Source: a bacterium (GTDB lineage Bacteria > Patescibacteriota > Minisyncoccia > Phycocordibacterales > VMGT01). Taken from it: a stretch of 64,000 nucleotides of DNA. Below the pieces are notes generated by a model. The model saw only the letters and a list, made by a program, of their open reading frames with translations, was not told where the DNA came from and made no database searches. Positions 7,581 through 37,613 of this stretch are shown piece after piece. Location of the stretch: NCBI GenBank assembly GCA_030697645.1, contig JAUYPI010000006.1, positions 12,017 to 76,016 on the forward strand, given 5' to 3'. The stretch's first letter is position 1, and each line of letters begins with the position of its first letter. The translations under genes were made by a program, and so were the position numbers.

Positions 7581-7680
7581 TTTAATTTTCAAGTCTCAAT
7601 TTCCAATTTTCAATCAATTTTCAATTACTCAATTTTCAAACACGACGTCGTTCGTTATTGAAAATTAGAAATTGAAAATT
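7581..7680. repeat. AATTTTCAAT-family palindromic spacer (E-family), copy 1
   Basis: Tandem aattttcaa(t) words, central aaacACGACGTCGT (7641-7650), then the complementary attgaaaatt words. Ends 9 nt before the ATG at 7690. Confidence 0.8.
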
Positions 7681-7689
7681 GCACACGCT

Positions 7690-9015
7690 ATGCCTCCTAA
7701 TCCCGTAAACGACGTCACTCCGCCGCGGCGATCTATTCGATCGCTGGTGTTGCCGCACTCAGCAGGGGATCAGAGCGAACCCGCCGCAGGTCGTGGTTCA
7801 GGAGCCGCAGATAACGGAAGCATTGGAGGTAGAGGCCGCGGCACGCGCTACGGTAAGCGGCTGTGGGCCGTGGCTATATTCTCCATAGCGCTTCTCTACG
7901 TTGTTTTCTCGGTCTTTTTCGCCGGGGCGCAGGTGATTATTGAAACGCGTGAATATACCGGCTCGGTAGATGGCACATTCGCCGCATCTGCCGAGGGTAT
8001 GACGGCGCCGCTTACCTACCGGCTGGTCTCAATAGAAAAAGAAGCGACTCGCGGACTGCCAGCGACCGGCGAGGAGTTTGTTGAGCGCAAATCGTCGGGA
8101 ACCATAGTTATCTATAATAACTATGACGAGAAGCCGCAGCGCCTGATCAAGAATACCCGTTTTGAGACGCCGGACGGCTTGATCTACCGGATTGCAAAGT
8201 CTCTAGACGTTCCGGGGAGGAGAAAGGCGGATAATTCACTCGCCAACCGTTTTGATATGGGCAGCATCGAGGCGGTTGTCTTTGCGGATGCCGTAGGCGA
8301 GCGGTACAACATCCCCCAAGGCACGCGATTCACAATCCCGGGCCTTAAGGGCGACCCGCGCTTCGGAGGGTTCTATGCGGAGACGAAGACTCCTATTGAG
8401 GGTGGCTTTGCTGGTGTGGTGAAGACTGTATCAAGCGCGGCAGAGGATGAGGCGCGCCGCTCTCTCAAAGCCGAACTCGAAAGCGCCCTCAAGGCAGAGA
8501 TTACGGGGAGTATTCCGGAGCGCGCGCTTTGGTATGAGGACGGCGCGATTATCCGCTCGCTCTCGCTCGCCAACCGCTGGGAAGGCGACAAAGTGATCGT
8601 CGGCGAGAAGGCGGGAATCCATGCCATGGTGTTCGATCAGGTTGCTTTCTCAAAGCATCTTGCGCGCGCAACTGTTGCCGGTTTCGATGAGGGCGACGTG
8701 GTGATAGAGAATTTTGACGAGCTCGCCGTTACCTTTCTCGAGAAAGAGGCGTTTGATCCCGCGGTAAAGGGCGAGGTGCGTTTCTCGGTTCGCGGCACCC
8801 CGCATTTCAGGTGGGTGTTCGATGAGGCGCGCCTGCGCGCCGACCTTGCCGGAAAATCAAAACGAGCGATTAACACGATCCTTGCGGGTTACCCGGCGAT
8901 AGCCAAGGCTGAAGTTATTCTCCGTCCCTTCTGGGACAGCACGTTCCCAAAAAAGCCGGAGAGTATCGTGCTCATCTTGAAAGGACAGAATTCTGAAGGA
9001 GCGCCAGCTCAATAG
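7690..9015 (+). CDS. Hypothetical membrane-anchored protein
   Basis: ORF with one N-terminal TM helix (LWAVAIFSIALLYVVFSVFFAGA) after a Gly/Arg-rich tail. The tracked start at 7672 lies inside the repeat, so ATG 7690 is preferred. No family recognised. Confidence 0.6.
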   Translation: MPPNPVNDVTPPRRSIRSLVLPHSAGDQSEPAAGRGSGAADNGSIGGRGRGTRYGKRLWAVAIFSIALLYVVFSVFFAGAQVIIETREYTGSVDGTFAASAEGMTAPLTYRLVSIEKEATRGLPATGEEFVERKSSGTIVIYNNYDEKPQRLIKNTRFETPDGLIYRIAKSLDVPGRRKADNSLANRFDMGSIEAVVFADAVGERYNIPQGTRFTIPGLKGDPRFGGFYAETKTPIEGGFAGVVKTVSSAAEDEARRSLKAELESALKAEITGSIPERALWYEDGAIIRSLSLANRWEGDKVIVGEKAGIHAMVFDQVAFSKHLARATVAGFDEGDVVIENFDELAVTFLEKEAFDPAVKGEVRFSVRGTPHFRWVFDEARLRADLAGKSKRAINTILAGYPAIAKAEVILRPFWDSTFPKKPESIVLILKGQNSEGAPAQ

Positions 9016-9207
9016 GTAGACAGGCGGCCACACCCGTGCTTCTTTCTCGCGCGGAACGTGGGGTAGATGGTTGCATGCGGTGCATAATGTTGCTATAGTT
9101 TATCCGGCTCGCTTTCACTGTTGCAACCGCATCGTCACTGAAAGGTTATTGAGTCAACATTCTCTCTAATAAAGAGCAGATTTTCAAAAGTGAAAGTGGG
9201 GTTGGAC

Positions 9208-9426
9208 ATGCAGCGATCAGATTCGAGACATGAGGAAAAATTCGGCGTCGTCGAGGAGGCGCTGCCGGACGCAATTTTTCGCGTCTCGCTTGAGGGGGGC
9301 GGGGAATTGAAAGCTTACCTCGCGGGGAAAATGCGCTTGCACCACATACGGGTGCTTGTTGGCGACCGCGTCATTGTTCGAATTGATCCGTATGGAGGGA
9401 AAGGAAGGATAATCAAACGGCTATAA
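9208..9426 (+). CDS. infA: Translation initiation factor IF-1
   Basis: 72 aa from ATG 9208. GVVEEALPDAIFRVSLEGG..LKAYLAGKMRLHHIRVLVGDRVIV is the S1-like IF-1 signature. Confidence 0.85.
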   Translation: MQRSDSRHEEKFGVVEEALPDAIFRVSLEGGGELKAYLAGKMRLHHIRVLVGDRVIVRIDPYGGKGRIIKRL

Positions 9427-9511
9427 TACCAAGTATATCAATCGCCAAAAAATTGGAATTTGGAAATTTGGTGTCTGGTGATTGTATTTTGGTTATTTGA
9501 GAACCAAAGCT

Positions 9512-9625
9512 ATGCGTGTTCGCTCAACCATTAAAAAGCGCTGCCGCACGTGCCAGATGATACGACGAAAAGGTCGTATGTATATCGTGTGTACCAATCC
9601 GCGGCACAAACAGAGGCAAGGATAG
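9512..9625 (+). CDS. rpmJ: Ribosomal protein L36
   Basis: Below the ORF-track cutoff, translated by hand: [37 protein letters not shown], stop TAG at 9623-9625. Canonical position between infA and rpsM. Confidence 0.9.
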
Positions 9626-9636
9626 GGTCTTTTTAT

Positions 9637-9771
9637 TTAATTTTCAATGCTCAATTTTCAATCAATTTTCAATGACCCAATTTTCAAACACGACGTCGTA
9701 CCGGCGCCGTCATTAAGTCATTGAAACATTGAAAATTTATTGGAAATTGCAAAATTGAAAATTGAAAATTT
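9637..9771. repeat. E-family palindromic spacer, copy 2
   Basis: aattttcaat words, core CGACGTCG at 9691-9698, then cattgaaacattgaaaatttattggaaattgcaaaattgaaaattgaaaattt. Ends 6 nt before the rpsM ATG. Confidence 0.85.
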
Positions 9772-9777
9772 CGTTCT

Positions 9778-10158
9778 ATGCGTTTATTCGGCATTACCAT
9801 TCCAGAGAAGAAGCGGCTCGATATCGGCCTCACGGCGATCTATGGGGTCGGACGTCCGCGCGCCGGAGCGGTTCTCCGGGAGGCAAAGGTAAACCCGGCG
9901 AAGCGACCGGCTGAGGTTAGTGCGGAAGACGAGGCGCGCATTCGGGCAGCACTCGAGAGCATCAAGCTCGAGGGCGAGCTGCGGCGGGATATAAGCGCAA
10001 ACATCAAGCGCCTCCGCGAGAGCAAATCGTACCGCGGCGTGCGCCATGTGCGGCACCTGCCGGCACGAGGTCAGCGCACGAAAACAAATTCACGCACCGT
10101 CCGCGGTAATGTGCGTAAGACCATGGGATCGGGGAGAAAAAAGGTGGAGAAGAAGTAG
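9778..10158 (+). CDS. rpsM: Ribosomal protein S13
   Basis: 126 aa. RLFGITIPEKKRLDIGLTAIYGVGR and a C-terminal basic tail, in operon context. Confidence 0.9.
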   Translation: MRLFGITIPEKKRLDIGLTAIYGVGRPRAGAVLREAKVNPAKRPAEVSAEDEARIRAALESIKLEGELRRDISANIKRLRESKSYRGVRHVRHLPARGQRTKTNSRTVRGNVRKTMGSGRKKVEKK

Positions 10159-10171
10159 ATCGCTTCATTGT

Positions 10172-10308
10172 TTAATTTTCAATTATCAATTATCAATTTT
10201 CAATCAATTTCCAATGAACCAATTTTCAAACACGACGTCGCCGCCACTCAGTCATTCATTGAAACATTGAAAATTTAATGAAAATTGAAAATTGTAAATT
10301 GAAAATTT
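10172..10308. repeat. E-family palindromic spacer, copy 3
   Basis: Same architecture, core cacgacgtcg at 10231-10240. Right arm ends 6 nt before the rpsK ATG. Confidence 0.85.
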
Positions 10309-10314
10309 CGTGCT

Positions 10315-10749
10315 ATGGGCAAAAAACGCATCATCAAAAAAAGCGGCGGGGGTTATGACAGCGGACTTAAATCCCGTGCGCTCTCTCGTGTGGCAAAACG
10401 ACAGATCGAAAAGGGAGTGCTGCATATCCAGTCCACCTACAATAATACGCTCCTCACGCTCGCCGAGGCATCGGGTGCGGTGCTCTGCGCCTCGTCGAGC
10501 GGCGCGCTCGGCTTCAAGGGCGCGCGCAAAGGGACGCCCTATGCGGCGGCAAAGGTCGGTGAGCTTATCGGCGAGAAAGCGGTGCAGATGGGAATGCGAG
10601 ATGCAGACATTATAGTGAAGGGCGTTGGTGCAGGCCGAGAGTCGTCCGTCCGCGGCTTCATTTCGCGCGGGATCAGCATTAGCAGTCTTCGGGATGCAAC
10701 GCCCGTACCTTTCAACGGCCCGCGGCCGCCGAAGCCGAGAAGGGTGTAG
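10315..10749 (+). CDS. rpsK: Ribosomal protein S11
   Basis: 144 aa. GVLHIQSTYNNTLLTL ... GFKGARKGTPYAA ... VKGVGAGRES. Confidence 0.9.
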   Translation: MGKKRIIKKSGGGYDSGLKSRALSRVAKRQIEKGVLHIQSTYNNTLLTLAEASGAVLCASSSGALGFKGARKGTPYAAAKVGELIGEKAVQMGMRDADIIVKGVGAGRESSVRGFISRGISISSLRDATPVPFNGPRPPKPRRV

Positions 10750-10752
10750 CAC

Positions 10753-10888
10753 GAAATTTCCAATTTTCAATTTTACAATTTCCAATCAATTTTCAATGTG
10801 TCAATGATGCAATGACGGACGACGTCGTGTTTGAAAATTGGGTCATTGCAAAATTGATTGAAAATTGAAAATTGAGACTTGAAAATTA
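10753..10888. repeat. E-family palindromic spacer, copy 4 (inverted orientation)
   Basis: Reads caatgacggacgacgtcgtgtttgaaaattggg, the reverse complement of the core in the other copies. Confidence 0.85.
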
Positions 10889-10909
10889 AGTATACGAGAC
10901 ATCTACTTC

Positions 10910-11545
10910 ATGAAACTCGGACCAAAGTATAAAATTTGTAAGCGTTTAGGTCCCGACGTCTTTGAGAAATGCCAGACGCCGCGGTTTGCGCTGGTCGCGA
11001 GCCGCGCTCCGAAGACGAAGCGAGGTGGAAAGCGAGGCGGGAGGCCGTCTCGAACGGATTACGGCAAACACATGCTTGAAAAGCAGCGTGTGCGGTTTAC
11101 TTATGGCCTCTCGGAGCGGCAGTTTGCGCGCTATGTCAAAGAGTCGGCGCGACCGGCCGGCGCGAAGCCTGCAGAGGCGCTCTACCGGCGGATTGAGTCG
11201 CGTCTCGACAATATCGTGTACCGTCTGTCTCTTGCGCGCACGAGAGCACAGGCGCGCCAGCTCGTCTCGCACGGCCTCATTACGGTGAACGACCGGAAAA
11301 TGAGCAGCCCGTCGTATGCGGTGCGAGTCGGCGAGCGGATAGGGGTCAAGCAGAGCAAGCGCGATCTCGGTGTCTTTGCTTCCCGCGGCCGAGGTGCTGA
11401 AGGAGAAGGCATTGTGATGCCCCCGGCGTGGCTCACGTTCGACGGCGCGAAAATGGAAGGAGTTGTGAGCGCCTTGCCTGCCGCGGAGAATGCCGGAGCG
11501 CAGTCGCTTGATTTGCAGGCGGTGATTGAGTTTTATAGCAGATGA
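10910..11545 (+). CDS. rpsD: Ribosomal protein S4
   Basis: 211 aa. MKLGPKYKICKRLG, YGLSERQFARY, S4 domain LDNIVYRLSLARTRAQARQLVSHGLITVN. Confidence 0.9.
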   Translation: MKLGPKYKICKRLGPDVFEKCQTPRFALVASRAPKTKRGGKRGGRPSRTDYGKHMLEKQRVRFTYGLSERQFARYVKESARPAGAKPAEALYRRIESRLDNIVYRLSLARTRAQARQLVSHGLITVNDRKMSSPSYAVRVGERIGVKQSKRDLGVFASRGRGAEGEGIVMPPAWLTFDGAKMEGVVSALPAAENAGAQSLDLQAVIEFYSR

Positions 11546-11547
11546 TG

Positions 11548-11675
11548 AAATTTTCAAGGCTCAATTTTTAATTTTCAATCAATTTTCAATGAACTAATTT
11601 TCAAACACGATGTCGTCCGTCGTTGAGTCATTGAAACATTGAAAATTTATTGAAAATTGCAAAATTGAAAATTCT
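11548..11675. repeat. E-family palindromic spacer, copy 5
   Basis: Same word structure with a slightly degenerate core cacgatgtcgtccgtc. Confidence 0.8.
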
Positions 11676-11751
11676 CAAGTCACCATGGTAATTTGACACC
11701 TCAAATTTTAAGTGTATAATTTATTTTGTTTACTAACCTACTTTTATTTTT

Positions 11752-12762
11752 ATGCCAGACTACACTATTGCGCTGCCGTCAAAACCACGGGTCGTCTTTG
11801 AAGAGGGAATGAGCGGCATGTATGAGATAGACGGCCTTTATCCAGGCTATGGACATACGCTTGGCAATTCGCTTCGGCGTATTATCCTCTCGTCGCTCCC
11901 CGGGGCGGCCATAACGCACATCAAGATCGAAGGGGTACCGCACGAATTTTCGACGATCGAGGGCGTCAAGGAGGACGTCGTCGCACTCACCCTAAATCTC
12001 AAACGCCTCCGGCTCTCGCTCGCCGGAGACGAGCCGCAGACGATGACCCTGAAGGTGAAAGGGCCGCGAGAAGTCATGGGTGCCGATATTGTGGCACCCG
12101 GGCAGGTTACCATATTGAATCCCGAGCTCCACATCGCAGAGGTGACGGCAAAGACGACGCTTGAGATGGAGCTCACCGTGGAGCGGGGGCTCGGGTATGT
12201 GCCAAAGGAGGTGCTTGAGAAAGAGCGCGTCGAGATCGGGACACTGACGCCGGATGCGATTTTTACTCCGATCCGCCGCGTCAACTACGAGGTGGAAAAT
12301 ATGCGCGTCGGCGATCGCACCGACTTCAATCGGCTGCGGGTCTTTGTTGAAACGGACGGGACGCTCACGCCGCGCGAAGCGCTCGAGCAGTCGATTGAGA
12401 TCATGATCCACCAACTCAAGGCAGTGATCGGCTTTGAGGAGAAGGAGGAAGATGAGACAGAGAGCGCAGATGAGACGATGCGTGGCGAACCCGCTCTTCC
12501 GCGCGGCGAGTCCGAGAACCCTGAGAAGCGGAGCGTCGCGGCGCACGAGGAGCTCGATAAAGAATTTTTGAAAACTCGTATCGAAACGCTTGACGGCCTC
12601 TCTGCCCGCACAGCGCACGCGCTCTCTGAGGCGAACATTCGAACCGTCGGCGGACTCGTACGCAAGAAGGCGGAAGACCTGCTTGCACTCGAGGGGATCG
12701 GGGAGAAAGCGATTGAGGAGATTAGAGACGTGCTTGCGAAAAACGGAGTAACGTTGAAGTGA
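11752..12762 (+). CDS. rpoA: DNA-directed RNA polymerase alpha subunit
   Basis: 336 aa. N-terminal dimerisation-domain pattern (GHTLGNSLRRILLSS) and a C-terminal HhH-like CTD. A TATAAT box at 11716-11721 lies upstream. Confidence 0.9.
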   Translation: MPDYTIALPSKPRVVFEEGMSGMYEIDGLYPGYGHTLGNSLRRIILSSLPGAAITHIKIEGVPHEFSTIEGVKEDVVALTLNLKRLRLSLAGDEPQTMTLKVKGPREVMGADIVAPGQVTILNPELHIAEVTAKTTLEMELTVERGLGYVPKEVLEKERVEIGTLTPDAIFTPIRRVNYEVENMRVGDRTDFNRLRVFVETDGTLTPREALEQSIEIMIHQLKAVIGFEEKEEDETESADETMRGEPALPRGESENPEKRSVAAHEELDKEFLKTRIETLDGLSARTAHALSEANIRTVGGLVRKKAEDLLALEGIGEKAIEEIRDVLAKNGVTLK

Positions 12763-12765
12763 TAT

Positions 12766-13323
12766 ATGCAGGAAAGAATTCCTTTGGAAAAAGTTGGGGA
12801 TGGATCCGAAATATCGAGACAGGAACCTCTCGGGATACTTTCTATTGGTAGTAATTGGACGGAATCTAGCGGCAGGCCGCTCGAAGAAGGAGAATCTCAG
12901 TTCTTTCACTCTACGTATGCATATAATATAAGTCCGGAACAATATCGGGACATTCTCGAAAAAGAAGAGTTTGTACTAGATCGACGGATGTTTGTTGACC
13001 CTATCCCACAAACCGGCTACGGACAGGTTCCCAATGTGGAGATGCGTACGTATAAAGAAAATCCGGACGAGCTTATACTTTTTCGTTTTATTACAAAAGA
13101 TGAAGAGCCGTTTCTTAAGATACAGGCCGAAGGACTTGATCTTAAGGATATAGGGAAAAAAGAAGGGCTGGTTGGAGGACCAGAAAAACGATTCGACCCT
13201 AATTATTTAGGGTATGCACTAAAATTAAGAAAAGTAGGCGAGGAACAATTGGGTGGTTACAAATTTCCTCATAGAGTTGTCACGTTTGAAGTTGTAGAGC
13301 GAATGCCTATTATTCCTGAATAA
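12766..13323 (+). CDS. Hypothetical acidic protein inserted between rpoA and rplQ
   Basis: 185-aa ORF starting 3 nt after the rpoA stop. Visibly lower GC than its neighbours. No family recognised. Confidence 0.5.
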   Translation: MQERIPLEKVGDGSEISRQEPLGILSIGSNWTESSGRPLEEGESQFFHSTYAYNISPEQYRDILEKEEFVLDRRMFVDPIPQTGYGQVPNVEMRTYKENPDELILFRFITKDEEPFLKIQAEGLDLKDIGKKEGLVGGPEKRFDPNYLGYALKLRKVGEEQLGGYKFPHRVVTFEVVERMPIIPE

Positions 13324-13386
13324 TTTTTAGCTTTTAGCGCTAGGTTTTTAGTGCTACTGTGTTAGTCCTCTAAAAGCTAATAGTCT
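13324..13386. repeat. AGCTTTTAG-family (heptamer-word) spacer, short copy
   Basis: tttttagcttttagcgctag ... cctctaaaagctaatag directly upstream of the rplQ ATG. Confidence 0.6.
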
Positions 13387-13740
13387 ATGCGTCACCACAA
13401 CAGAATCAAAAAATTCGGCCGCGTCGCGCGGCAGCGGAGAGCACTGATCTCCTCGCTCGCCTCATCCCTCATTCGTCATGAGAAGATCACGACGACCGAG
13501 GCGAAAGCAAAGGAGCTTCGGCCATTTATTGAGCGCCTCATCACCGTTGCGCGGCAGGGCACACTCGCCGCGAGGCGAACGACCCTTGCGCGACTTGGCG
13601 GAGAGAGTGTCGCTGCGCGTCGGCTCATGAGCTCTGTTGCCTCGCGCTATCTCTCTCGACCCGGGGGCTACACGCGCATCACAAAACTGCGTGCGCGCAC
13701 CAGCGACAGGGCACCGCAGGCGCGCATTGAATTTGTATGA
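13387..13740 (+). CDS. rplQ: Ribosomal protein L17
   Basis: 117 aa. MRHHNRIKKFGR ... LITHEKITTTEAKAKELRPFIERLIT. Confidence 0.9.
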   Translation: MRHHNRIKKFGRVARQRRALISSLASSLIRHEKITTTEAKAKELRPFIERLITVARQGTLAARRTTLARLGGESVAARRLMSSVASRYLSRPGGYTRITKLRARTSDRAPQARIEFV

Positions 13741-14108
13741 CAGCCACTGATCAGACACTCTATACAATCGACGCCCGAGCACAGCGTCTCGGGCGGGTTG
13801 CCGCCGATGCGGCGCGCGTCCTTATGGGCAAACACACGCCCCACTACGAGCGCAATCGGATAAACGGGCAGCGCGTACGCATCGAGCACGCGGCAGCACT
13901 CCAGATTGACGAGCGAAAAAAGAAGCATACAATATATTCGCGCCACTCGGGCTATCCGGGCTCGCTCAAGCGCGTAACGCTCGCCGCGATCGAGACGAAG
14001 CGCGGTCGAGAGCGTGCATACAGCGAGGCGCTCCGTCGGGCAGTCTACGGCATGCTGCCGAAGAACAAGCTGAGGCCGAGGATGATGAAACGGCTTGAAA
14101 TCATATAG
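13737..14108 (+). CDS. rplM: Ribosomal protein L13
   Basis: 123 aa. LGRVAADAARVLMGKH ... YSRHSGYPGSLK. Overlaps the rplQ stop by 4 nt. Confidence 0.85.
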   Translation: MTATDQTLYTIDARAQRLGRVAADAARVLMGKHTPHYERNRINGQRVRIEHAAALQIDERKKKHTIYSRHSGYPGSLKRVTLAAIETKRGRERAYSEALRRAVYGMLPKNKLRPRMMKRLEII

Positions 14109-14172
14109 AGAAAATGATGTAGAGACACGCAGCAAGCAGAACGTCCTCAGCATCAAAACCTAAATGCCGATA

Positions 14173-14284
14173 AAATTTTCAATTATCAATTTTCAATTTT
14201 CAATCAATTTTCAATTTCTCAATTTTTCAAACACAACGCCGACGTCGTCCATTGAAAATTGTAAAATTGAAAATTGAAAATTTA
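14173..14284. repeat. E-family palindromic spacer, copy 6
   Basis: aattttcaat words, core CGACGTCG at 14240-14247, short right arm ending 6 nt before the rpsI ATG. Confidence 0.8.
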
Positions 14285-14290
14285 AACTGT

Positions 14291-14713
14291 ATGCCTTCCT
14301 CAACCACCCCCAAACCCAAGAAATCCGACCGCTACATCGAGGCAGTTGGCCGCCGCAAGACGGCGATTGCGCGCGTGCGGATCTCACCTGCTTCAAAAAC
14401 GAACGTCTTGATCAACGACCGCTCGATCGAATCGTACTTTCCAGTGGCCACCCTTGCGCAGAGTGTCCTCTCGCCGCTTGCGCTCGCGCCGTCGGCGCAT
14501 TTTAGCGTAAGCGTCCATGTTGTCGGCGGGGGCATTCGCGGCCAGGCAGAGGCGGTGCGCCACGGTATCGCGCGCGCGCTCACGCTCTCGAGCGCTGATC
14601 TCCGGACCCCTCTGAAGCGCGCTGGATTTCTCACGCGTGATCCTCGTGCCAAGGAGCGGCGCAAATTCGGGCTCAAAAAAGCGCGCAAGGCACCGCAATG
14701 GAGTAAACGATAG
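14291..14713 (+). CDS. rpsI: Ribosomal protein S9
   Basis: YIEAVGRRKTAIARV ... GGGIRGQAEAVRHGIARAL ... RDPRAKERRKFGLKKARKAPQWSKR. The tracked start at 14252 is inside the repeat, so ATG 14291 is preferred. Confidence 0.9.
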   Translation: MPSSTTPKPKKSDRYIEAVGRRKTAIARVRISPASKTNVLINDRSIESYFPVATLAQSVLSPLALAPSAHFSVSVHVVGGGIRGQAEAVRHGIARALTLSSADLRTPLKRAGFLTRDPRAKERRKFGLKKARKAPQWSKR

Positions 14714-14766
14714 TTTACTCCATTGCGGGCGAAGGGGGTCGGGGAAACTGTAGTTTAGTTCCCTCT

Positions 14767-14887
14767 AAATTTTCAATTATCAATTTTCAATCAATTTTGC
14801 AATGAATCAATTTTCAAACACGACGTCGTCCGTCACTCAGTCATTGAAACGTTGAAAATTCATTGAAAATTGCAAAATTGAAAATTA
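14767..14887. repeat. E-family palindromic spacer, copy 7
   Basis: Same architecture, core cgacgtcg at 14821-14828. Ends 9 nt before the grpE ATG. Confidence 0.85.
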
Positions 14888-14896
14888 GACAATCCT

Positions 14897-15469: not shown

Positions 15470-15500
15470 AAGCAGAACGGAACACGCCTCCGAGTCATCT

Positions 15501-15648
15501 AATTTCCAATTTTCAATTTTGCAATTTTCAATCAATTTTCAATTATCCAATTTTCAAACACGACGCCGACGACGTCCGTCATTGAGTCATTGAAACATTG
15601 AAAATTCATTGGAAATTGAAAATTGTAAATTGAAAATTAAGAAATAAT
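15501..15648. repeat. E-family palindromic spacer, copy 8
   Basis: Same architecture with a duplicated core cacgacgccgacgacgtccgtc. Confidence 0.85.
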
Positions 15649-15662
15649 TTTAAAACTAAACT

Positions 15663-17570: not shown

Positions 17571-17597
17571 GCAGCATGCGGCAAGCACACGGTTCCC

Positions 17598-17710
17598 AGC
17601 TTTTAGCTGTTAGCTTATAGCTTTTAGCACGGACGGCGGAGCCTCTCAAAAGCTAACAGCGTTATAAGTTTTCCAGCCCTTTGGGCGCAAAGGGCTATGG
17701 CTAAAAGCTC
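17598..17710. repeat. AGCTTTTAG-family palindromic spacer
   Basis: cagcttttagctgttagcttatagcttttagc ... aaaagctaacagc ... ggctaaaagct. Ends 2 nt before the dnaJ ATG. Confidence 0.75.
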
Positions 17711-17712
17711 GT

Positions 17713-25715: not shown

Positions 25716-25733
25716 TCCCCTGAATCGGAACGA

Positions 25734-25879
25734 GTAATCACTCACACCCGTCATTGCGAGCGGAGCGAAGTAATCCAGTTGTTGAGCCGTAATTCTGGAT
25801 TGCCTCGTCGCTCCACTCCGTTCCGCTTCTCGCAATGACGGCTGTGTTGTGCAGCTTTGTGATAGGTGTGAGTGATTAC
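25734..25879. repeat. Nested palindrome: outer GTAATCACTCACACC/GGTGTGAGTGATTAC enclosing GTCATTGCGAG...CTCGCAATGAC element (copy 2)
   Basis: Outer arms at 25734-25748 and 25865-25879. Inner arms at 25750-25760 and 25829-25839. Lies just 3' of trpS and probably also acts as a terminator hairpin. Confidence 0.65.
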
Positions 25880-25936
25880 CGGAACGAATGTTGACGACCG
25901 TATGTCGTGCGTTGTATAGTAGTAGAGTATACGCCC

Positions 25937-26254
25937 ATGTCTACGTTAACGATTACTTTACCTCAGAGGAAGATGCGACAAGTGGAGCAACGCGCTCGCG
26001 CGGCGGGTTTTCGCGCTCCTGGCACATGGGCGCGCAGTATCATCGAAACCGAAGTGGCGCGCGATGAAGATGACGAGGAGATCACTGAAGATACTATTTT
26101 ACGGTGGTCGAGGGAGGCAAAGGTGCTGAAACGAGCAGGCAAACTTCCCATTTTGCGTTCATTGGCCGACCTCCGTTCTACTCGACGTGGTTTTTCGGGG
26201 CGACCAAATACTGCGAAGCGGTCAGGCCGCTCGCTCACCGTGGGCGCGCGATAA
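25937..26254 (+). CDS. Hypothetical protein, possible ribbon-helix-helix (CopG-like) N-terminus
   Basis: MSTLTITLPQRKMRQVEQRARAAGFRAPGTWARSII resembles an RHH strand-helix-helix. ATG 25937 is preceded by TATAGT. Confidence 0.35.
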   Translation: MSTLTITLPQRKMRQVEQRARAAGFRAPGTWARSIIETEVARDEDDEEITEDTILRWSREAKVLKRAGKLPILRSLADLRSTRRGFSGRPNTAKRSGRSLTVGAR

Positions 26255-26351
26255 GAACCGTGCATAGAGGCGGGCATTGTCTCTCGTCTCTTTTTTGCGT
26301 CGTCTGTTTTCGTCTCTAAAAGCTAAAAGCTATCAGCTAACAGCTTGTACT

Positions 26352-28487
<2,136 letters not shown>

Positions 28488-29037: not shown

Positions 29038-29122
29038 TGAAATTGGATCTCCTATTGATCTTCTGAAGGCCGTGGCCTCTGCTGGATGATTTTTTTGTGT
29101 GCGGGGCATATCTGATGCGAAT

Positions 29123-29986: not shown

Positions 29987-29993
29987 TACATTC

Positions 29994-31121
29994 CTATCGT
30001 GGAGAAGATGCAGGATTCGTCTGGCGGAGCGGGATCGTGAATCGTATGGTAGTGCCTTCGTTTTCAGCGCTGGTGAAATCCATCTTACCGCCGTGGTTTT
30101 CGACGATATTTTTCGCCATGTAGAGGCCGAGGCCGGTGCCGGCGGTAGCATAGAGTTTAGCATTTCTGGCGCGGAAGAATTGATCGAAGACCTGGCGCTG
30201 TTGCTCCTTCGGGATGCCAATGCCGGTGTCTGCGACGCTGACCTCGATGTCTCGCGCCTTCTTTCGTACGGTGAGCGCGACCGCACCTCCTTCAGGCGTA
30301 TATTTGATCGCGTTGTTGATAAGGTTGTCAATAACGATGCCGACTTTTTCTGCGTCGATCGAAATTGAGGGCAGCACGGAGGGCAGAGAGATTGAGAAAG
30401 CGACTCGCTTACGCTTGGCAACAGGACGCGTTGCGTTAACGACCTTTTCAATAATCGGCAGGAAATCCTGTTCCACCGGCACGAAGCCAAAGCGTCCTTC
30501 CTCGATGCGCGCAGTGTCGAGGAGGTCGCTAATGAGCTCTGTCGCAGTGACTGTCACCCCGAGGCTCTCATTGAGTATTTTGAGCTGTTCCTCACTGAGC
30601 GGCCCGAGTTCGCCGTCAACAAGCGACTGGAGCGACCAACGCACGCCTGTGAGAGGTGTCCGGAGCTGGTGCGCCGCGACTGAGACGAATTCTGATTTGA
30701 CGAGATCAAGGCCTTCGAGGCGCGTGTTCGCGCTCGAGAGCTCGATATCACGGCGCACGAGCACCTTGCCGACCTCGCTGAATTCACCCGCGACGCGGGA
30801 ATACTCATCGTTCGCCCGGGAGGACTCTCGGTCTTTGCGCACGAGAAGCCGTGCGCTATCGGTGTTCTCGTGAAGCCATACTTCGAGCTCTTGGTTGTGT
30901 TTGCTGAGCGTGCGCACGGCGCTGAACGCTGCCGTCGCCGCCCCCGCTGCAGTGAGGGCGGTGAGAGCGCCCCAGAGCACGCGGTTAAGCAGGCCTGCCG
31001 TTAAAATCGCGGCCGCAGTCACGAGCGGCGAGAGAAGGAGCGCGAGGGTAAGGCGGAGGCGGGGGGAGAGAGTAAAGATATTGCCGGCATGTTTGGGAAA
31101 GTGCATGGGAGTAAAATGCAA
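29994..31121 (-). CDS. Sensor histidine kinase
   Basis: 375 aa. Two N-terminal TM helices, coiled coil, H-box VSVAAHQLRTPLTGV, HATPase_c (NLINNAIKYTP, DTGIGI, GTGLGLYMAK). Confidence 0.85.
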   Translation of the reverse strand: MHFTPMHFPKHAGNIFTLSPRLRLTLALLLSPLVTAAAILTAGLLNRVLWGALTALTAAGAATAAFSAVRTLSKHNQELEVWLHENTDSARLLVRKDRESSRANDEYSRVAGEFSEVGKVLVRRDIELSSANTRLEGLDLVKSEFVSVAAHQLRTPLTGVRWSLQSLVDGELGPLSEEQLKILNESLGVTVTATELISDLLDTARIEEGRFGFVPVEQDFLPIIEKVVNATRPVAKRKRVAFSISLPSVLPSISIDAEKVGIVIDNLINNAIKYTPEGGAVALTVRKKARDIEVSVADTGIGIPKEQQRQVFDQFFRARNAKLYATAGTGLGLYMAKNIVENHGGKMDFTSAENEGTTIRFTIPLRQTNPASSPR

Positions 31122-31387
31122 AGTTCAAAGCGCAAAACGCAAAACAACAACGCAAAATAACACAGTAAAATTCGAATTTCCAACCAACAAGCTCCAAATC
31201 AAATAAATTCCAAGCTCCAACCAACAAGCTCCAAACAAATTTCAAATTCCAATGCATCAAATCTCAAACACGCACGTCGTGTTTGGAAATTGGATTTTGA
31301 ATATTGGGATTTGTTTGGAAATTGTTTTTTGGAAATTGGAGATTCGTTTTGCTTTTTGCACTGTTGTTTTTCGCTTTACACTTTGCG
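31122..31387. repeat. ~260-bp imperfect palindrome (CCAAATTTC/GCAAAAC word family) filling the HK-FIST spacer
   Basis: Centre aaacacgCACGTCGTGttt near 31268-31286. Outer arms gcaaagttcaaagcgcaaaacgc... and ...gcgaaaaacaacagtgc-type complement (cgctttacactttgc). Confidence 0.7.
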
Positions 31388-32590
31388 TTACTTCGTCCCA
31401 ATCCCCACAATCGTAATCGTCCCATTATGGAACAGCGTCGGCTCGGGTGCAGTGCCGCCGCCGATCGCGTGTATCGCGGGCGCGTACTCGCCGTAGCTTG
31501 CAATGCCGAGAAGCGGCGTATCACGCCCCACGATATCAAGAATAGCGTTGGTTTCGTCTTTGATCATAGCACCGAGGAGTTTTTTGCGTGAGATGCTCTC
31601 AAAGACGAGGAGGAGTTTCAGCGAGACGTGTGAGCGCTTCAAGCGCTCCATCAGGCCCTCGGTCGCGGTGCATGCAGCAGTCAGCGCTTTTTCTTTGCTC
31701 CCGATCATGAGACGAACCCGAGCGCCCTCGGGTATTGCCGCGGCGAGAGTGAGCGAACCGTCTTCTTCTGCCCTGAGGGGATTTCGGATGAGGTACTCAT
31801 CGCTCACGCCAGTGCGGACGCCAAGTGGGTAGCCGAGTGCCGAATGTGCGAGTGGCTCGGCGCGAAGTTTTGATAGATCTTCCCCGAAATAGTCTTCGTA
31901 GATAGACGCAGCTCTCCTTCCCTCGAGTTCAAAAACGCGCGTACCTTCTGCGCGCGTTACTCTCTGCGGTATGCCGACCGGTATCCAGCCGCCTTCGACG
32001 CCGATGCCGAGCACGCATTCGCCTGAGATCGCACAACCGACAAGAGCGTCGTCTCCAACGAGAGCGTCCCGGTACTGGAACGTCCGCTCGAACGTGAGCT
32101 CATCACTTGCCGCCACTCCGGCAGCCGGTATATTCGCACCGAGCACACTCTGCAAGCCCCCGAGCACCTCGGCAGCGCCGCCTCGGAGCATATTAGCGAA
32201 GAGGAGGAGTCCGACGAGCTCCCCGGTGGCGAGTTCCCTGATTTCTTGCCCTACGAGGGCGCCTGCGGCGCGGGCGCCGTTTTTCATGAGCCCCATACCG
32301 GAGGCGAATGTGACTGAGTCGCTCTCGAGCGCGACGACCGCTACCGTCTGGTCAACGGGGCCTTCATTCGTGAGGATCCCCGTGGCTGAACAGCCGACAA
32401 GGGGAGCGTTGCCGCTTGCGTCCCGCACGCCGCGGACGAGCGCCTCCTGGTCGTAGAGTGTAGAAGCGAATACCAAAAGCTGCGTCGGCCGCTCAACCCC
32501 CGCCCTCTCAAGGGCGCTCTGAGCTGCCGCAAAACCCGCTTGGTGCGCGTCGTGTTCTTTGGCGGTGCCGACTCCGACGATGAGAGACAT
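31388..32590 (-). CDS. FIST-domain signalling protein
   Basis: 400 aa. Overall pattern and its position between a receiver and a kinase fit FIST_N/FIST_C sensors. Assigned from memory. Confidence 0.5.
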   Translation of the reverse strand: MSLIVGVGTAKEHDAHQAGFAAAQSALERAGVERPTQLLVFASTLYDQEALVRGVRDASGNAPLVGCSATGILTNEGPVDQTVAVVALESDSVTFASGMGLMKNGARAAGALVGQEIRELATGELVGLLLFANMLRGGAAEVLGGLQSVLGANIPAAGVAASDELTFERTFQYRDALVGDDALVGCAISGECVLGIGVEGGWIPVGIPQRVTRAEGTRVFELEGRRAASIYEDYFGEDLSKLRAEPLAHSALGYPLGVRTGVSDEYLIRNPLRAEEDGSLTLAAAIPEGARVRLMIGSKEKALTAACTATEGLMERLKRSHVSLKLLLVFESISRKKLLGAMIKDETNAILDIVGRDTPLLGIASYGEYAPAIHAIGGGTAPEPTLFHNGTITIVGIGTK

Positions 32591-32605
32591 GGGGGATGAT
32601 GGCGC

Positions 32606-32781
32606 AACCGCTCACGCCTTAAAATTTTGCGCTCGAGCTTCGGCGTTTAGAAATAACAGTCGCCTCATTGACGAAAAACGCATAACTCGCCTGCGGGCTC
32701 AAACAGATGCGTTTTTCTATTCGGCTCCTTTATTTCCAAAACGCCTCTCGCTATGCGCAAAATTTTAAGGCGTGAGCGGTT
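32606..32781. repeat. Long palindrome with perfect 27-bp terminal arms
   Basis: AACCGCTCACGCCTTAAAATTTTGCGC (32606-32632) and its exact reverse complement (32755-32781). Inner arms GAAAAACGCAT/ATGCGTTTTTC. Confidence 0.85.
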
Positions 32782-32801
32782 CCGGCGTGAGAGTGGTTTG
32801 A

Positions 32802-33272
32802 CTACGTAATTCCGAGCAACTGCTCTATCTTCGCCACGATCTCGTTCGGCGATGTGTTCGCTTTGACAGCGTAGTCCGCAGCCCCGATCTGCCTTGCTTT
32901 CTCAAGGTCGTCTCGTTGACCGAGATTGGAGAGAATAAGCACGGGGATATGTTTCATCTTTTCATTCGCCTTGATCTCGCGCAGGAGCACGAAGCCGTCC
33001 TCGCCGGGAAGGATGAGATCAAGGCAAACGAGATTGATCGGCTTTTCGGCAAGGAGTGCGCGACCCTCTTCGACCGTCTCCGCCCGAAAGACGGTAAATT
33101 TCTGATCGTGGAGCTTTCGCTCAAGCATGCCGCCGAGAAACGGGTCGTCTTCAACAACGAGGAGCACAGCGCGAGTCTCCTCAGGTGAGATTTCTCGTGG
33201 AGCATCGCCTGATCCTGCCACACTGTCCGCACCGGGACCGGTGGCGCTCTCTTGAATGCTGTCATCATTCAT
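32802..33272 (-). CDS. Response-regulator receiver-domain protein
   Basis: REC pattern VLLVVEDDPFL ... CLDLILPGEDG ... ADYAVKA. ATG at 33272 (MNDDS) is preferred over the tracked 33398. Confidence 0.8.
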   Translation of the reverse strand: MNDDSIQESATGPGADSVAGSGDAPREISPEETRAVLLVVEDDPFLGGMLERKLHDQKFTVFRAETVEEGRALLAEKPINLVCLDLILPGEDGFVLLREIKANEKMKHIPVLILSNLGQRDDLEKARQIGAADYAVKANTSPNEIVAKIEQLLGIT

Positions 33273-33550
33273 AGAAGTATTGAGAGTATAACAAAGAGAG
33301 CGCACGGCGCACAAGGACACCCCTGTGTATAACGTGCGCTTGACAGGGGATGCAGGCCGCGTTACATTGTGATATAAGGTCAAAATGTTACATGTCAAAT
33401 GTCATGAACTCGGATTTCGAGCCCCGAATATTCGGATTTGGATAAGTCTTTTTTATCAGTTAATTTTTTACGCCGAGATCGCTTCGCACTGTCGTCCGCG
33501 CTCATCGAGGCGTCGGTAATTTCCGAAGCGATTCTCGCGTACCACATAGT

Positions 33551-34741
<1,191 letters not shown>

Positions 34742-34782
34742 CAATGGTAACCACCCACCAATAGTTCTGATTCGATTGGTCA

Positions 34783-34910
34783 AATTTTCAATTTTACAAT
34801 TTCCAATCAATTTTCAATGTGTCAATGACTCAATGACGGGCGAAGTCGTGTTTGAAAATTGGGTCATTGAAAATTCACTGAAAATTGAAAATTGTAAATT
34901 GAAAATTTCG
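34783..34910. repeat. E-family palindromic spacer, copy 9 (inverted orientation)
   Basis: caatgacgggcgaagtcgtgtttgaaaattggg. Additionally flanked by CCACCCACC / GGTGGGTGG. Confidence 0.8.
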
Positions 34911-34949
34911 AATGGGAGAGGTGGGTGGGCTTTTGCTTGATTTTTTGCC

Positions 34950-35318
34950 ATGGTTACTAAATCAACGGCTCCGCGTAAGCGCGCCGCGGCAGCGCGCAAA
35001 AAGGAGGAGGTTTCGCACAAGCTCCGCATTCGCATCCGCGCCTACGAGCACAAGATTCTTGACTCGTCCGTAAAGCAGGTCATGGACACCGCGCTTCGCT
35101 ACGATGCGCGGGTCGAGGGTCCGACGCCGCTTCCGGTTGAGATCAAAAAGTACACAGTCAACCGCTCATCGTTCGTGCACAAGAACGCGCGCGAGCAGTT
35201 CGAGATGCGCACGCACAAGCGCCTCATTGACATCCTCGACCCGGCGCCGAAGTTGATCGAAGCGCTTACGAATCTCACGTTGCCGTCGGGAGTGAATGTG
35301 GACGTGAAGATGATGTAA
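34950..35318 (+). CDS. rpsJ: Ribosomal protein S10 (with basic N-terminal extension)
   Basis: LRIRIRAYEHKILDSSVKQVMDTA ... HKNAREQFEMRTHKRLIDI. Confidence 0.9.
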   Translation: MVTKSTAPRKRAAAARKKEEVSHKLRIRIRAYEHKILDSSVKQVMDTALRYDARVEGPTPLPVEIKKYTVNRSSFVHKNAREQFEMRTHKRLIDILDPAPKLIEALTNLTLPSGVNVDVKMM

Positions 35319-35323
35319 AGGTT

Positions 35324-35436
35324 TGAGCTTTTAGCTTATAGCTGTTAGCTTTTAGGGGTTGTCGCGGCGTGCGCGAAGCACGCAATCGTTAGTCTGTCGT
35401 GCCTCTAAAAGCTATAAGCTAACAGCTAAGAGCTTT
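35324..35436. repeat. AGCTTTTAG-family palindromic spacer
   Basis: Left arm gagcttttagcttatagctgttagcttttag. Right arm ctctaaaagctataagctaacagctaagagct, ending 5 nt before the rplC ATG. Built from 7-nt AGCTnnT words. Confidence 0.8.
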
Positions 35437-35441
35437 TTTGT

Positions 35442-36059
35442 ATGAAATTCATTCTTGCCACCAAACAGCACATGACCCAGCTCTTCGACGAGGACGGGCG
35501 TGCATACCCGGCGACTCTACTTACCGCTGGGCCGGTTACCGTGACGCAGACGAAGAGCAAAGAGCGCGATGGCTACCGTGCGGTGCAGGTGGGTTTCGGG
35601 GCTCAGAAAGCGCAGCGGCTCTCGGCGCAGCAGCGCGGGCACCTCAAGGGGCTCGGAGCGTTTCGGACGCTCCGCGAATTTCGCTTAGCCGAGAGTGAGG
35701 CCGCGCTTGAGCGCGGCGCGATGCTCGACGTCTCGCAGTTTGCTCCGGGAGAGCGCGTGCGGGTCTCCGCTACATCGAAAGGCAAGGGCTTTCAGGGAGT
35801 GGTGAAGCGCCACGGATTCAAGGGCGGGCCGAGGAGCCACGGCCAGAAGCACTCGGAGCGCGAGCCGGGCTCGATCGGCGGCGGGGGGCGAGCCGGCGGC
35901 CGCGTCGTAAAAGGGATGCGCATGGCGGGCCGCATGGGCGGCGATCGCGTCACGGTGCGCGGTCTTCGGGTGCTCGCGGTGGACCCCGAAGCGCACGAGC
36001 TTCTCCTCCGCGGCGCGGTCCCCGGGAGGCGCGGAACGCTTGTTGAGGTGAGGGGATAG
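35442..36059 (+). CDS. rplC: Ribosomal protein L3
   Basis: 205 aa. KGKGFQGVVKRHGFKGGPRSHGQ. Confidence 0.9.
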   Translation: MKFILATKQHMTQLFDEDGRAYPATLLTAGPVTVTQTKSKERDGYRAVQVGFGAQKAQRLSAQQRGHLKGLGAFRTLREFRLAESEAALERGAMLDVSQFAPGERVRVSATSKGKGFQGVVKRHGFKGGPRSHGQKHSEREPGSIGGGGRAGGRVVKGMRMAGRMGGDRVTVRGLRVLAVDPEAHELLLRGAVPGRRGTLVEVRG

Positions 36060-36575
36060 AGGACTCTGCATGGATTTTTTCAAAATAAGGAGAGAAAATA
36101 TACCGCCGAGCACTATAGCATAATTGCTACATGGCTCGAGCGGATAGCGGTATTGCTTCTTGCTTCGCTTGTAGTCCAAAAAATTGTTTCCGGCAGCTCG
36201 TTTGTTGACACGAGCGTGGCAGGTGGGGTTTTATTGTCAGGGGTTGTGTACTACGCGGCGCTTTTATTTTTACAGAACTCGTAGTATAGTACTCGTATGG
36301 TCTCGCAACTTCTCATTTATATTGGGGGGGCGCTCATTGCGGTGATGTTTATTATTTTGGCGTATCCAATGGAGGGAAAACATGGGCATGGACGCAGTTG
36401 ATAAGTGTATACGAGAATGATATAAAGATTCATCCCCCGCCCGGAGGCGGGGGATCGTGTGAGGGGTGTGAGTAAGAGGCGTTGATGTCAGTTTGCCGCT
36501 TTTTTGGAAATCGAGCTTATCTCTGTCCAATAAAAATGACCATCACCCCTGGTGTAACGGCAAGTGGCGTAAGCA

Positions 36576-36719
36576 TTATATGCTGAAGAAAACACCTCGT
36601 GGGCAGTCGTACACAGTACCGTCTTTCAGTGTGATAGATGTTGGCTCCTTTCAGTCGGCGGTACATCCGACAACAAGTAACGCGAGCAATGCCGTAGCGA
36701 TACAAAACACTCTTTTCAT
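36576..36719 (-). pseudogene. Small lipoprotein (YgdI/YgdR-like) interrupted by an in-frame TGA
   Basis: MKRVFCIATALLALLVVGC|TAD, then TGA (36651-36653), then in frame KEPTSITLKDGTVYDCPRGVFFSI and TAA. Lipobox LVVGC. GGAAGGG lies upstream. Confidence 0.35.
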
Positions 36720-36809
36720 CGGTTTCCCTTCCATGTGATGCGAGTTATGTAGGCCAGTCTGGCTAGACCGACGTTTCGGGTTTCTACACGGAGAATTATA
36801 CAAAAATTT

Positions 36810-37475
36810 ATGCATGTCAAGTCTTATAGCCAAACAGGTGCAGAAGCGGGGACCATTGATCTTCCCGATGCCGTTTTTGCTCTGCCGTGGAACGCGGACC
36901 TCGTGCACCAGGTCGTGGTCGGCATGCAGGCGAATGCGCGCACGAATGTCGCGCACACCAAGGGTCGTGGCGAGGTGCGCGGCGGCGGGAAAAAACCCTG
37001 GAAGCAGAAGGGCACCGGCCGCGCGCGGCATGGCTCGATCCGCTCACCGCTCTGGAGGGGCGGTGGGGTGACGTTTGGTCCGACGAACGAGAAATCATAC
37101 ACACAGAAGATCAACCAGAAGATGCGCGTGAAAGCGCTGTTCACCGCGCTCTCGCAGAAGCTACGCGACGGCGAGATGCTTTTTGTGGACTCGCTCACGT
37201 TTCCCGCTCCGAAGACCGCCGACGCGAAGCGCACCGTGACGGCGCTTGCAGGTATTGAAGGGTTCGGGCGGCTCGCGACGAAGACCCGCAACACCGCCCT
37301 CCTTGCGCTCGCCCGTCGCGACGAGGCGGTCGAAAAAAGTTTCCGCAACTTCGGCAACATCAGTACGGTTGAAGCCCGCAACTTGAATCCGGTAGAGGCG
37401 TTGAAATATAAATATATAATCTTTACCGAACCGAGTGAGGTGTGTAAGATACTTGCCGAGCGACAGCGGCAGTAA
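36810..37475 (+). CDS. rplD: Ribosomal protein L4
   Basis: 221 aa. HTKGRGEVRGGGKKPWKQKGTGRARHGSIRSPLWRGGG. Confidence 0.9.
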   Translation: MHVKSYSQTGAEAGTIDLPDAVFALPWNADLVHQVVVGMQANARTNVAHTKGRGEVRGGGKKPWKQKGTGRARHGSIRSPLWRGGGVTFGPTNEKSYTQKINQKMRVKALFTALSQKLRDGEMLFVDSLTFPAPKTADAKRTVTALAGIEGFGRLATKTRNTALLALARRDEAVEKSFRNFGNISTVEARNLNPVEALKYKYIIFTEPSEVCKILAERQRQ

Positions 37476-37480
37476 GAGAA

Positions 37481-37613
37481 TAATTTCCAATTTTCAATTT
37501 TGCAATTTTCAATCAATTTTCAATTATCTAATTTTCAAACACGAACGTCGCCGTGATTGAGTCATTGAAACATTGAAAATTTATTGAAAATTGAGCATTG
37601 AAAATTGAAAATT
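37481..37613. repeat. E-family palindromic spacer, copy 10
   Basis: Same architecture with core cacgaacgtcgcc. Ends 6 nt before the rplW ATG. Confidence 0.85.

Follow-up and report, generated by a model that had tools for sequence, protein, structure and literature searches.

The intervening sequence (IVS) of the Coxiella burnetii 23S rRNA gene is bounded by terminal inverted repeats and carries an open reading frame (ORF) of the S23p family (PF05635), with three to four tandem GACAGAT heptamers, their number variable among strains, right before the S23p ATG; RNase III cuts its stem in the middle, and the ORF shows decay, one strain carrying a 176-bp deletion (PMC4990558). RNase III cutting of Salmonella and Leptospira IVS stems, and the pentameric four-helix-bundle rings formed by PF05635 proteins (Lin 2006), are both cited in the same paper. 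The family resembles Avd, a protein of diversity-generating retroelements (DGRs), in sequence and structure (PMC10053308). In genomes of the Candidate Phyla Radiation (CPR), PF05635 ORFs lie inside insertions of 16S and 23S rRNA genes, alongside many short (<200 bp), uncharacterised, ORF-less insertions that have been suggested to be RNase III-type IVSs (PMC11270868). Here we describe a family of AT-rich palindromes, the E family, from a 64,000-nt stretch of a Patescibacteria genome (contig JAUYPI010000006.1 of assembly GCA_030697645.1, positions 12,017 to 76,016; hereafter the window), and argue from sequence comparison that its ten copies there are probably internally deleted, ORF-less derivatives of an IVS-type palindromic element that have colonised operon spacers.

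E arms and PF05635 genes

All ten copies share one architecture, in which left-hand AATTTTC-type words lead into AATC-AATTTTC-AATG-(3 nt)-CAATTTTCAAAC, followed by a core that is short and G/C-rich (ACGACGTCGT or variants of it) and right-hand GAAAATT words. The copies are 105-142 nt long, with arms of 22-54 nt that are 71-95% complementary, and thus form terminal inverted repeats, around a core of 10-40 nt. The period of the words is 7 nt, not the helical 10-11 nt of the initial annotation: lag-7 autocorrelation (0.59-0.64) ranked first among lags 1-16 in all five E arms tested, and the apparent 11-nt spacing is due to an occasional extra CAAT. The same lag-7 peak is shown by every palindrome family of the window and of two relatives, L121 and L126 (L numbers denote sequences from other genomes). 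With at most one mismatch allowed, AATTTTCAA matches the window 109 times, as against 17.7 +/- 4.4 times in shuffles, and the core ACGACGTCGT 14 times, as against 3.1 +/- 1.7. Copies within the window are 78-88% identical to one another, have non-repeat core sequence in common and differ in word number.

At several loci in other CPR genomes a left and a right arm stand 350-500 nt apart with an ORF between them. In nine of nine such cases with E arms the ORF is PF05635 (23S-rRNA-intervening-sequence protein, S23p, an Avd-like four-helix bundle; Pfam E 1e-14 to 1e-18, with PDB entry 2RLD as a sequence match), and never a transposase. Because the first five of these loci (L117, L096, L045, L029 and L066) had been chosen by word pattern, PF05635 genes were also sampled by protein similarity alone, from more than 7,600 homologues, and all four CPR genes so chosen (L157, L158, L159 and L161; two from Kaiserbacteria, one from a source-named Nomurabacteria and one from a metagenome contig) have E arms as well. 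Altogether, E arms flank the PF05635 gene in 9 of 12 CPR cases, and the other three have other heptamer words. Inverted arrays of AAAAGTT (L007), CAAATGT (L108) and TAATTGA-type words (L013) were likewise found around PF05635 genes, and their words match ORF-less palindrome families in the window (38028-38157) and in L121.

The left arm supplies the start codon of the PF05635 ORF, namely the ATG in its inner CAATG word, and the frame runs on through the final word (for example MNQFSR.., MIQFPN.. or MKQLSN.., followed by YDLEERT). Window copies have kept this start as a remnant, ATGACCCAATTTTCAAAC (MTQFSN), after which core and right arm follow directly; they therefore appear to be internally deleted, ORF-less elements of the IVS type. 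Both arms of the window copies align to those of the five word-chosen loci with 85-90% identity over 45-65 nt (scores of 32-46, as against a shuffle maximum of 20), and the right arm of copy 5 differs hardly at all from the one next to a PF05635 gene of Kaiserbacteria (L158). Having no ORF and lying outside rRNA genes, the window copies are filed here as ORF-less derivatives and not as full IVS members.

E copies in operon spacers

The ten copies, and a remnant at 9447, are found where the initial annotation had placed them (Table 1), and several of its further observations hold. The copies at 10753 and 34782 are indeed inverted, each aligning as a reverse complement or having an inverted core; the elements are AT islands, with a GC content of 0.26-0.36 as against about 0.55 for the window; and a long hairpin is predicted for all ten (dG -22 to -45 kcal/mol, z -4.6 to -6.6). 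Neighbouring genes, as named by NCBIfam, are rpsM, rpsK, rpsD, rpoA, rpsI, grpE, dnaK, rpsJ and rplW, the copy at 7581 being the tenth, in the leader of a GlxA-like gene. The window contains no rRNA gene, and its E copies all lie between protein genes. A scan of the whole window at Rfam gathering thresholds gave no match.

Copies fill stop-to-start spacers, their left ends lying 3-65 nt past the upstream stop codon. The right arm had been described as stopping 6-12 nt before the ATG, which is true of six copies (6-10 nt), but the distance is 22, 24, 42 and 78 nt in the other four. The genes had also been described as having no Shine-Dalgarno (SD) sequence. This is correct for the ribosomal-protein genes, but SD-less starts are mostly a property of the lineage, common in the window and in relatives, and an SD-like 4-mer occurs within 22 nt upstream of only 12 of 52 window genes. 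Strong SD sequences stand before a few genes of the window, e.g. before 29497, 44446 and 55705. The tie to translation and chaperone operons is borne out: a heptamer palindrome of any family, with spacers classed roughly by us, is present in 14 of the 18 spacers upstream of such genes and in 2 of 30 elsewhere (Fisher p = 6e-7).

Table 1. Coordinates of E copies, other heptamer palindromes and the rpoA promoter in the window, and of in-frame E arms in other genomes (positions on the locus named)
Feature	Coordinates	Strand	Remarks
E copy 1, shortest	7581..7685	+	GlxA-like gene leader (ATG 7690); left arm of 5 words, core ACGACGTCGT at 7642-7651, right arm of 2 words; dG -22.2, z -5.0
Right-end remnant of E-like element	9447..9475	.	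infA-rpmJ spacer
E copy 2	9637..9772	+	rpmJ-rpsM spacer; ends 7 nt before rpsM ATG; dG -40.1, z -6.2
E copy 3	10172..10309	+	rpsM-rpsK spacer; begins 15 nt past stop codon, ends 7 nt before ATG
E copy 4, inverted core	10753..10890	-	rpsK-rpsD spacer; dG -44.3
E copy 5	11548..11675	+	begins directly past rpsD stop codon; upstream of rpoA promoter
rpoA promoter, sigma-70 consensus (TTGACA-16-TATAAT)	11693..11720	+	12/12 matches; conserved in L121; outside E copy 5
E copy 6	14173..14285	+	rplM-rpsI spacer; ends 8 nt before ATG; dG -25.4, z -6.0
E copy 7	14767..14888	+	rpsI-grpE spacer; ends 10 nt before ATG
E copy 8	15500..15641	+	grpE-dnaK spacer; closest paralogue is copy 10 (88% identity)
Nested pair of palindromes	31117..31387	.	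between FIST and histidine-kinase genes (minus strand)
E copy 9, inverted core	34782..34910	-	tuf-rpsJ spacer; dG -45.1, z -6.5
AGCTTTT-word heptamer palindrome	35319..35441	.	rpsJ-rplC spacer; lag-7 autocorrelation 0.63-0.74
E copy 10	37481..37616	+	rplD-rplW spacer; begins 6 nt past stop codon, ends 6 nt before ATG
ACATTTG-word heptamer palindrome	38028..38157	.	rplW-rplB spacer; same words flank PF05635 gene in L108
In-frame E arm	L113 1924-1979
In-frame E arm	L098 3539-3601
In-frame E arm	L098 3733-3780
In-frame E arm	L042 4622-4662
In-frame E arm	L044 5270-5310
In-frame E arm	L049 6785-6843
In-frame E arm	L065 7456-7496
In-frame E arm	L001 5949-6003

Occurrence in other genomes

A search for AATTTYCAATCAATTTYCAAT in one genome per species matched at least 120 stretches. 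Among the matches listed, nearly all come from Patescibacteria metagenome-assembled genomes (MAGs) of many lineages, with GC contents of 0.27-0.61, and the arm architecture, including its punctuation (words, AATC, word, AATG, ..., CAAAC), is constant. E arms occur in CPR genomes in three settings, namely as intergenic palindromes, as insertions at 16S and 23S hairpin tips, and as in-frame half arrays inside proteins.

Full intergenic palindromes number at least 70 among the matches listed, where 56 of 70 lie between co-directional genes, a share in line with how genes are generally ordered in compact genomes, and not diagnostic. In many of them the first word incorporates the upstream TAA stop, and in many the next start codon is a few nucleotides away; the genes downstream are functionally mixed among the same matches. 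Within rRNA genes, full E palindromes are present in the 23S gene of L031 and in the 16S genes of L088 and L028. That of L031 is a 162-nt insert in place of a 6-nt hairpin loop at about model position 282. The same 23S gene has a second insert, with AATTCAG heptamers (~1260-1300), starting near model position 583, at what is in our view the classical helix-25 site for IVSs.

When arms occur singly within long ORFs, their orientation is invariably the stop-free one, and they are translated as NFQFSIFNFQSIFN or a peptide close to it (Table 1). Their hosts, identified by eye from conserved motifs and not by family search, look like Pth, a prepilin peptidase (with two arrays), RluD-like and MiaB-like proteins, ArgRS and MetRS, the MetRS-like arm being at the same site in two genomes. 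Set against their E. coli homologues, the RluD-like and MiaB-like cases presumably represent loop insertions of ~20-26 residues. A scan of the phage sequences in IMG/VR gave 10 matches, all of them short word runs and none a full element, nine with near-identical flanks.

Beyond the CPR, a tblastn search of plasmids with a CPR PF05635 protein found genes annotated 'four helix bundle protein' in Nostoc, Aulosira, Euhalothece and Chondrinema (L150-L154), with inverted repeats at all five distinct genes and heptamer arrays at four of the five. The flanks contain AATTCAA repeated 4-5 times in Nostoc flagelliforme and Aulosira, (CTGGTCA)x12 in Euhalothece (L153) and CAGT-type words, including TAACTGA, in Chondrinema (L152), where the gene lies between two RND pump genes. 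The sample is small; inverted heptamer arrays at PF05635 genes of cyanobacterial and Bacteroidota plasmids suggest an element class that crosses phyla.

Turnover among relatives

Distant relatives with the same gene order (L122-L134, RpsD 39-49% identical; L139, RpoA 67%) have spacers of 1-90 nt without palindromes, with the exception of L126, which has heptamer palindromes of its own in two spacers. Closer relatives (L121, RpoA 88%; L137, 79%; L138, 69%) have other heptamer families in the same spacers, the 7-nt words of L137 and L138 being seen by eye. The named RpoA neighbours of the window, at 64-67% identity, are Parcubacteria, Kaiserbacteria and Paceibacterota.

Spacer by spacer, occupancy has changed repeatedly. 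Between rpsD and rpoA, one family is common to L137 and L121 and the window has an E copy instead. The infA-rpmJ spacer of L121 holds a full 160-nt E-like element (2481-2642) whose right end matches the 9447 remnant of the window. L121 has only a short unrelated palindrome between rpmJ and rpsM, where the window has E copy 2, a different heptamer family between rpsM and rpsK (E copy 3) and a third family between rpsK and rpsD (E copy 4). The only orthologous E pair is copy 1 and its counterpart at 717-798 of L121, which are 67% identical in a setting where the genes are 81-91% identical. Elements also lie inside elements, both in the window (31117-31387) and in L007, and insertion into existing palindromes would explain how families are swapped at fixed sites. 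On these comparative grounds, with other families in close relatives and compact spacers in distant ones, the E elements are best regarded as derived DNA with fast turnover.

Comparison with described repeats

The E family and rRNA IVSs both have long-stem terminal inverted repeats and heptamers, variable in number, directly before the start of a PF05635 ORF, and both insert at rRNA hairpin tips (for E, in L031, L088 and L028); the documented decay of the Coxiella ORF, by deletion in one strain, has a likeness in the ORF-less E copies. Unlike rRNA IVSs, the window copies lack an ORF, are found between protein genes and number at least ten in 30 kb, and heptamer words make up the whole of their arms instead of a short stretch; moreover, RNase III cutting has been shown for Coxiella and would extend to the window copies by analogy. 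Neither the CPR arm sequence nor its spread into operon spacers is described in PMC4990558, PMC11270868 or PMC10053308. Literature searches with E word strings gave no match, and concept searches (CPR, Saccharibacteria, palindromes of the MITE kind (MITE: miniature transposable element with inverted repeats)) gave nothing relevant.

Cyanobacterial short tandemly repeated repetitive (STRR) heptamers, first described around 1990, form similar 7-nt arrays. Rickettsia palindromic elements (RPEs) are selfish palindromes that occupy intergenic DNA, RNA genes and, in frame, protein genes; their settings are thus like those of E, but the sequences are unrelated, and an RPE is translated as a whole whereas only the stop-free arm of E is. 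We know of no link between RPEs and a PF05635 gene. The Correia elements of Neisseria are RNase III-substrate stems with a TA target duplication, unique terminal repeats, a proven promoter and an integration host factor (IHF) site. Correia elements and MITEs resemble E in being inverted-repeat elements of 100-150 bp near gene starts, co-transcribed with their neighbours, but for E we see neither a TA target duplication, nor unique terminal repeats, nor a promoter or IHF site. PF05635 is also like Avd of DGRs, and the protein-chosen PF05635 genes examined have beside them neither a reverse transcriptase nor a template or variable repeat.

The direct TAACTGA repeats known from Beggiatoaceae, Cyanobacteria and Bacteroidetes (MacGregor 2015, PMC4679880) share with E a 7-nt unit, an intergenic position a few nucleotides from SD-less starts, overlap with upstream stop codons, enrichment at translation genes (COG J) and a presence inside ribosomal-protein operons; in both, arrays read in one direction are closed by stops in every frame, those of the other orientation are found in frame within ORFs, and both are patchy across phyla. 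The TAACTGA repeats are direct arrays without a partner gene, whereas E elements are inverted pairs with core and punctuation (AATC, AATG) and are tied to PF05635. That study makes no mention of four-helix-bundle or IVS proteins, and our literature searches found no paper linking TAACTGA repeats to PF05635.

Two other candidates were rejected. Repetitive extragenic palindromes and their mosaics (REP/BIME) are imperfect, G/C-rich palindromes 20-40 nt in length whose head, GTAG or CGTC, is conserved, as described in PMC3733652, and the E elements, at 105-142 nt and a GC content of 0.26-0.36, have no such head. Arrays of the TIGR-Tas type have a different architecture.

Proposed origin and alternative explanations

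We propose that the full form of the element would be two inverted arrays of 7-nt words around a PF05635 gene of ~120 codons, that is, a member of the rRNA IVS class, and that the family behaves as selfish DNA which would have spread through the CPR into spacers, rRNA hairpin tips and, as single in-frame arms, proteins. The E copies would then have built up between the stop and start codons of neighbouring genes in operons with heavy transcription, where they must be transcribed within the operon RNA. Pairing of their two arms may give an A/U-rich stem of 40-55 bp whose tip is G/C-rich, and RNase III may cut this stem as it does in rRNA IVSs; such a cut would separate the cistrons, making the insertion harmless rather than useful. 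Copies may be made through the PF05635 protein acting in trans, by slippage of heptamers or by template switching within the palindrome. The RNase III step is a reasonable suggestion by homology, given that IVS stems are cut in Coxiella, Salmonella and Leptospira. Of the three roles offered by the initial annotation (insulator, processing site that would yield near-leaderless cistrons, domesticated MITE), the mobile-element reading gains most, supported as it is by arms homologous to those of PF05635 genes, by the copies in rRNA genes and by occupancy that differs among relatives.

Several points weigh against this proposal. Mobility is argued from comparison, with no duplication and no known transposase; the ten junctions show neither a target-site duplication nor bases that are duplicated or common to them. 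The 17 PF05635 genes examined are a small sample, and tblastn finds no gene of this family in the 64-kb window. RNase III cutting of these mRNA stems is carried over from published IVS work. In addition, the same spacers hold different families in four related genomes, which may indicate selection for a hairpin, and the enrichment in translation and chaperone operons could reflect such selection rather than tolerance or targeting.

These last points favour the palindromes being selected cis-elements of the operon, whose hairpins set cistron stoichiometry, protect upstream 3' ends or tune the SD-less start, in the last case with the A-rich right arm as a platform for S1 or Csp that the hairpin masks or unmasks; their origin as elements would then be secondary, by exaptation. 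The contrast of 14 of 18 spacers with 2 of 30, the filling of the same spacers by different families in L121, L137 and L138, and the right arms that end 6-10 nt before the ATG in six of ten copies are all as this would predict, and the TAACTGA arrays of Beggiatoaceae likewise stand before SD-less starts inside ribosomal-protein operons (PMC4679880). Nevertheless, we consider it rather unlikely. Distant relatives with the same operon order manage with spacers of 1-90 nt, mostly without a palindrome, and across CPR loci the same element occurs in rRNA genes and inside proteins, and before genes of mixed function. Nor is there any sign of strand-specific RNA selection: an RNAalifold analysis of eight copies found no compensatory change in 35 pairs, and among 59 oriented elements the sense fold was the more stable in 29 and the antisense fold in 29 (Wilcoxon p = 0.82), with 120 G-U pairs on each strand. 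Cleavage of the stem is compatible with this result. The enrichment in translation and chaperone operons could arise by targeting of heavily transcribed DNA, or by tolerance or selection at these sites.

The initial annotation had also raised the possibility that the elements are per-gene insulators combining terminator and promoter, with a hairpin that stops transcription and TTGAAA-N17-GAAAAT restarting it near the ATG. The word arrays do match the sigma-70 consensus at 9 of 12 positions, but they do so on both strands, and matches so symmetric would drive antisense transcription just as well; these hexamers are absent from the other word families that occupy the same spacers. The rpoA gene has its own consensus promoter (Table 1), which lies outside the element and gives a leader of ~30 nt. 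An extended -10-like box, TGCTATAGT (7536-7547), stands before copy 1. Both this box and the rpoA promoter are conserved in L121, and canonical promoters therefore exist in the lineage, distinct from the elements. The elements were also rejected as intrinsic terminators, since their A/U-rich stems have no G/C-rich base plus U tract, and none of 18 terminator-like matches between 7000 and 18000 of the window coincides with an element. These results lend the insulator idea no support, and we regard a cassette of this kind as very improbable.

It is equally hard to sustain that E copies are ordinary MITEs moved by a DDE transposase. Terminal inverted repeats, small size, many copies and nested insertions would all suit a MITE, but no consistent target-site duplication is seen at the ten junctions, the ORF between the arms is PF05635 and not a transposase, and the arms consist of repeated 7-nt words where a MITE would have a unique terminal repeat. 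Thus the mobile part of the original 'domesticated MITE' proposal is retained while the MITE label itself fails on duplication and transposase. Finally, we give very little credence to arrays having arisen in place by heptamer replication slippage and fold-back copying with no transfer between sites, since, although among long simple-sequence repeats of bacteria heptamer units are the most frequent, with slippage proposed as the cause (PMC4679880, citing Mrazek 2007), and word number does vary between copies, the same punctuated arm recurs in CPR MAGs of GC 0.27-0.61, is tied to one protein family and, in the window, accompanies non-repeat core sequence shared among paralogues.

Other features of the window

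The nested pair consists of a diverged E-like copy with CCAA-type words (31171-31345) set centrally into a heptamer palindrome whose outer arms (31117-31170 and 31345-31387) belong to a family also seen in L121. Relatives of the AGCTTTT palindrome lie at 13324-13386, before rplQ, and at 17597-17712, before dnaJ, and a half array only of 7-nt words precedes fusA (26320-26351). A 185-codon ORF without a Pfam match (12766-13323), 3 nt past rpoA, is absent from L121, which has a 110-nt heptamer palindrome there instead. Upstream of the ORF at 25937 lies a long palindrome of 220 nt (25716-25936; minimum free energy -86.6 kcal/mol) that is G/C-richer and unrelated in sequence to the heptamer families.

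A second contig, JAXMIX010000114.1 (GCA_034376905.1), is 100% identical to window positions 6395-14708 and ends at 14708, just before copy 7, which fits assembly breakage at repeats. Most PF05635 homologues are on contigs shorter than 2 kb, and IVS-type repeats probably fragment CPR assemblies.

Implications

IVSs have so far been treated as curiosities of rRNA genes, and here the same type of element appears in the spacers of essential operons of a CPR bacterium with a reduced genome. Heptamer arrays before SD-less genes have likewise been left without an explanation, and the E family offers a plausible route to a wider one. It is tempting to speculate, although we hold this to be doubtful as yet, that PF05635 genes with inverted heptamer arrays constitute a single unrecognised class of mobile element across phyla, in which the pentameric protein binds the arrays and ORF-less debris is left elsewhere. 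If so, such debris would explain the short CPR rRNA insertions, the CPR intergenic palindromes and the in-frame NFQFSIF-type peptides, and perhaps also the cyanobacterial STRR and the TAACTGA arrays of Beggiatoa and Bacteroidetes. The Avd-like pentamer would bind arrays of about five words per arm, and copies would show a preference for landing in DNA with heavy transcription (rRNA, ribosomal-protein and chaperone operons), perhaps by way of an RNA intermediate. In any case, there are practical consequences for work on the CPR: E elements add peptides to housekeeping proteins, make 16S and 23S genes longer, with effects on primers and annotation, and, as repeats, probably break MAG assemblies.

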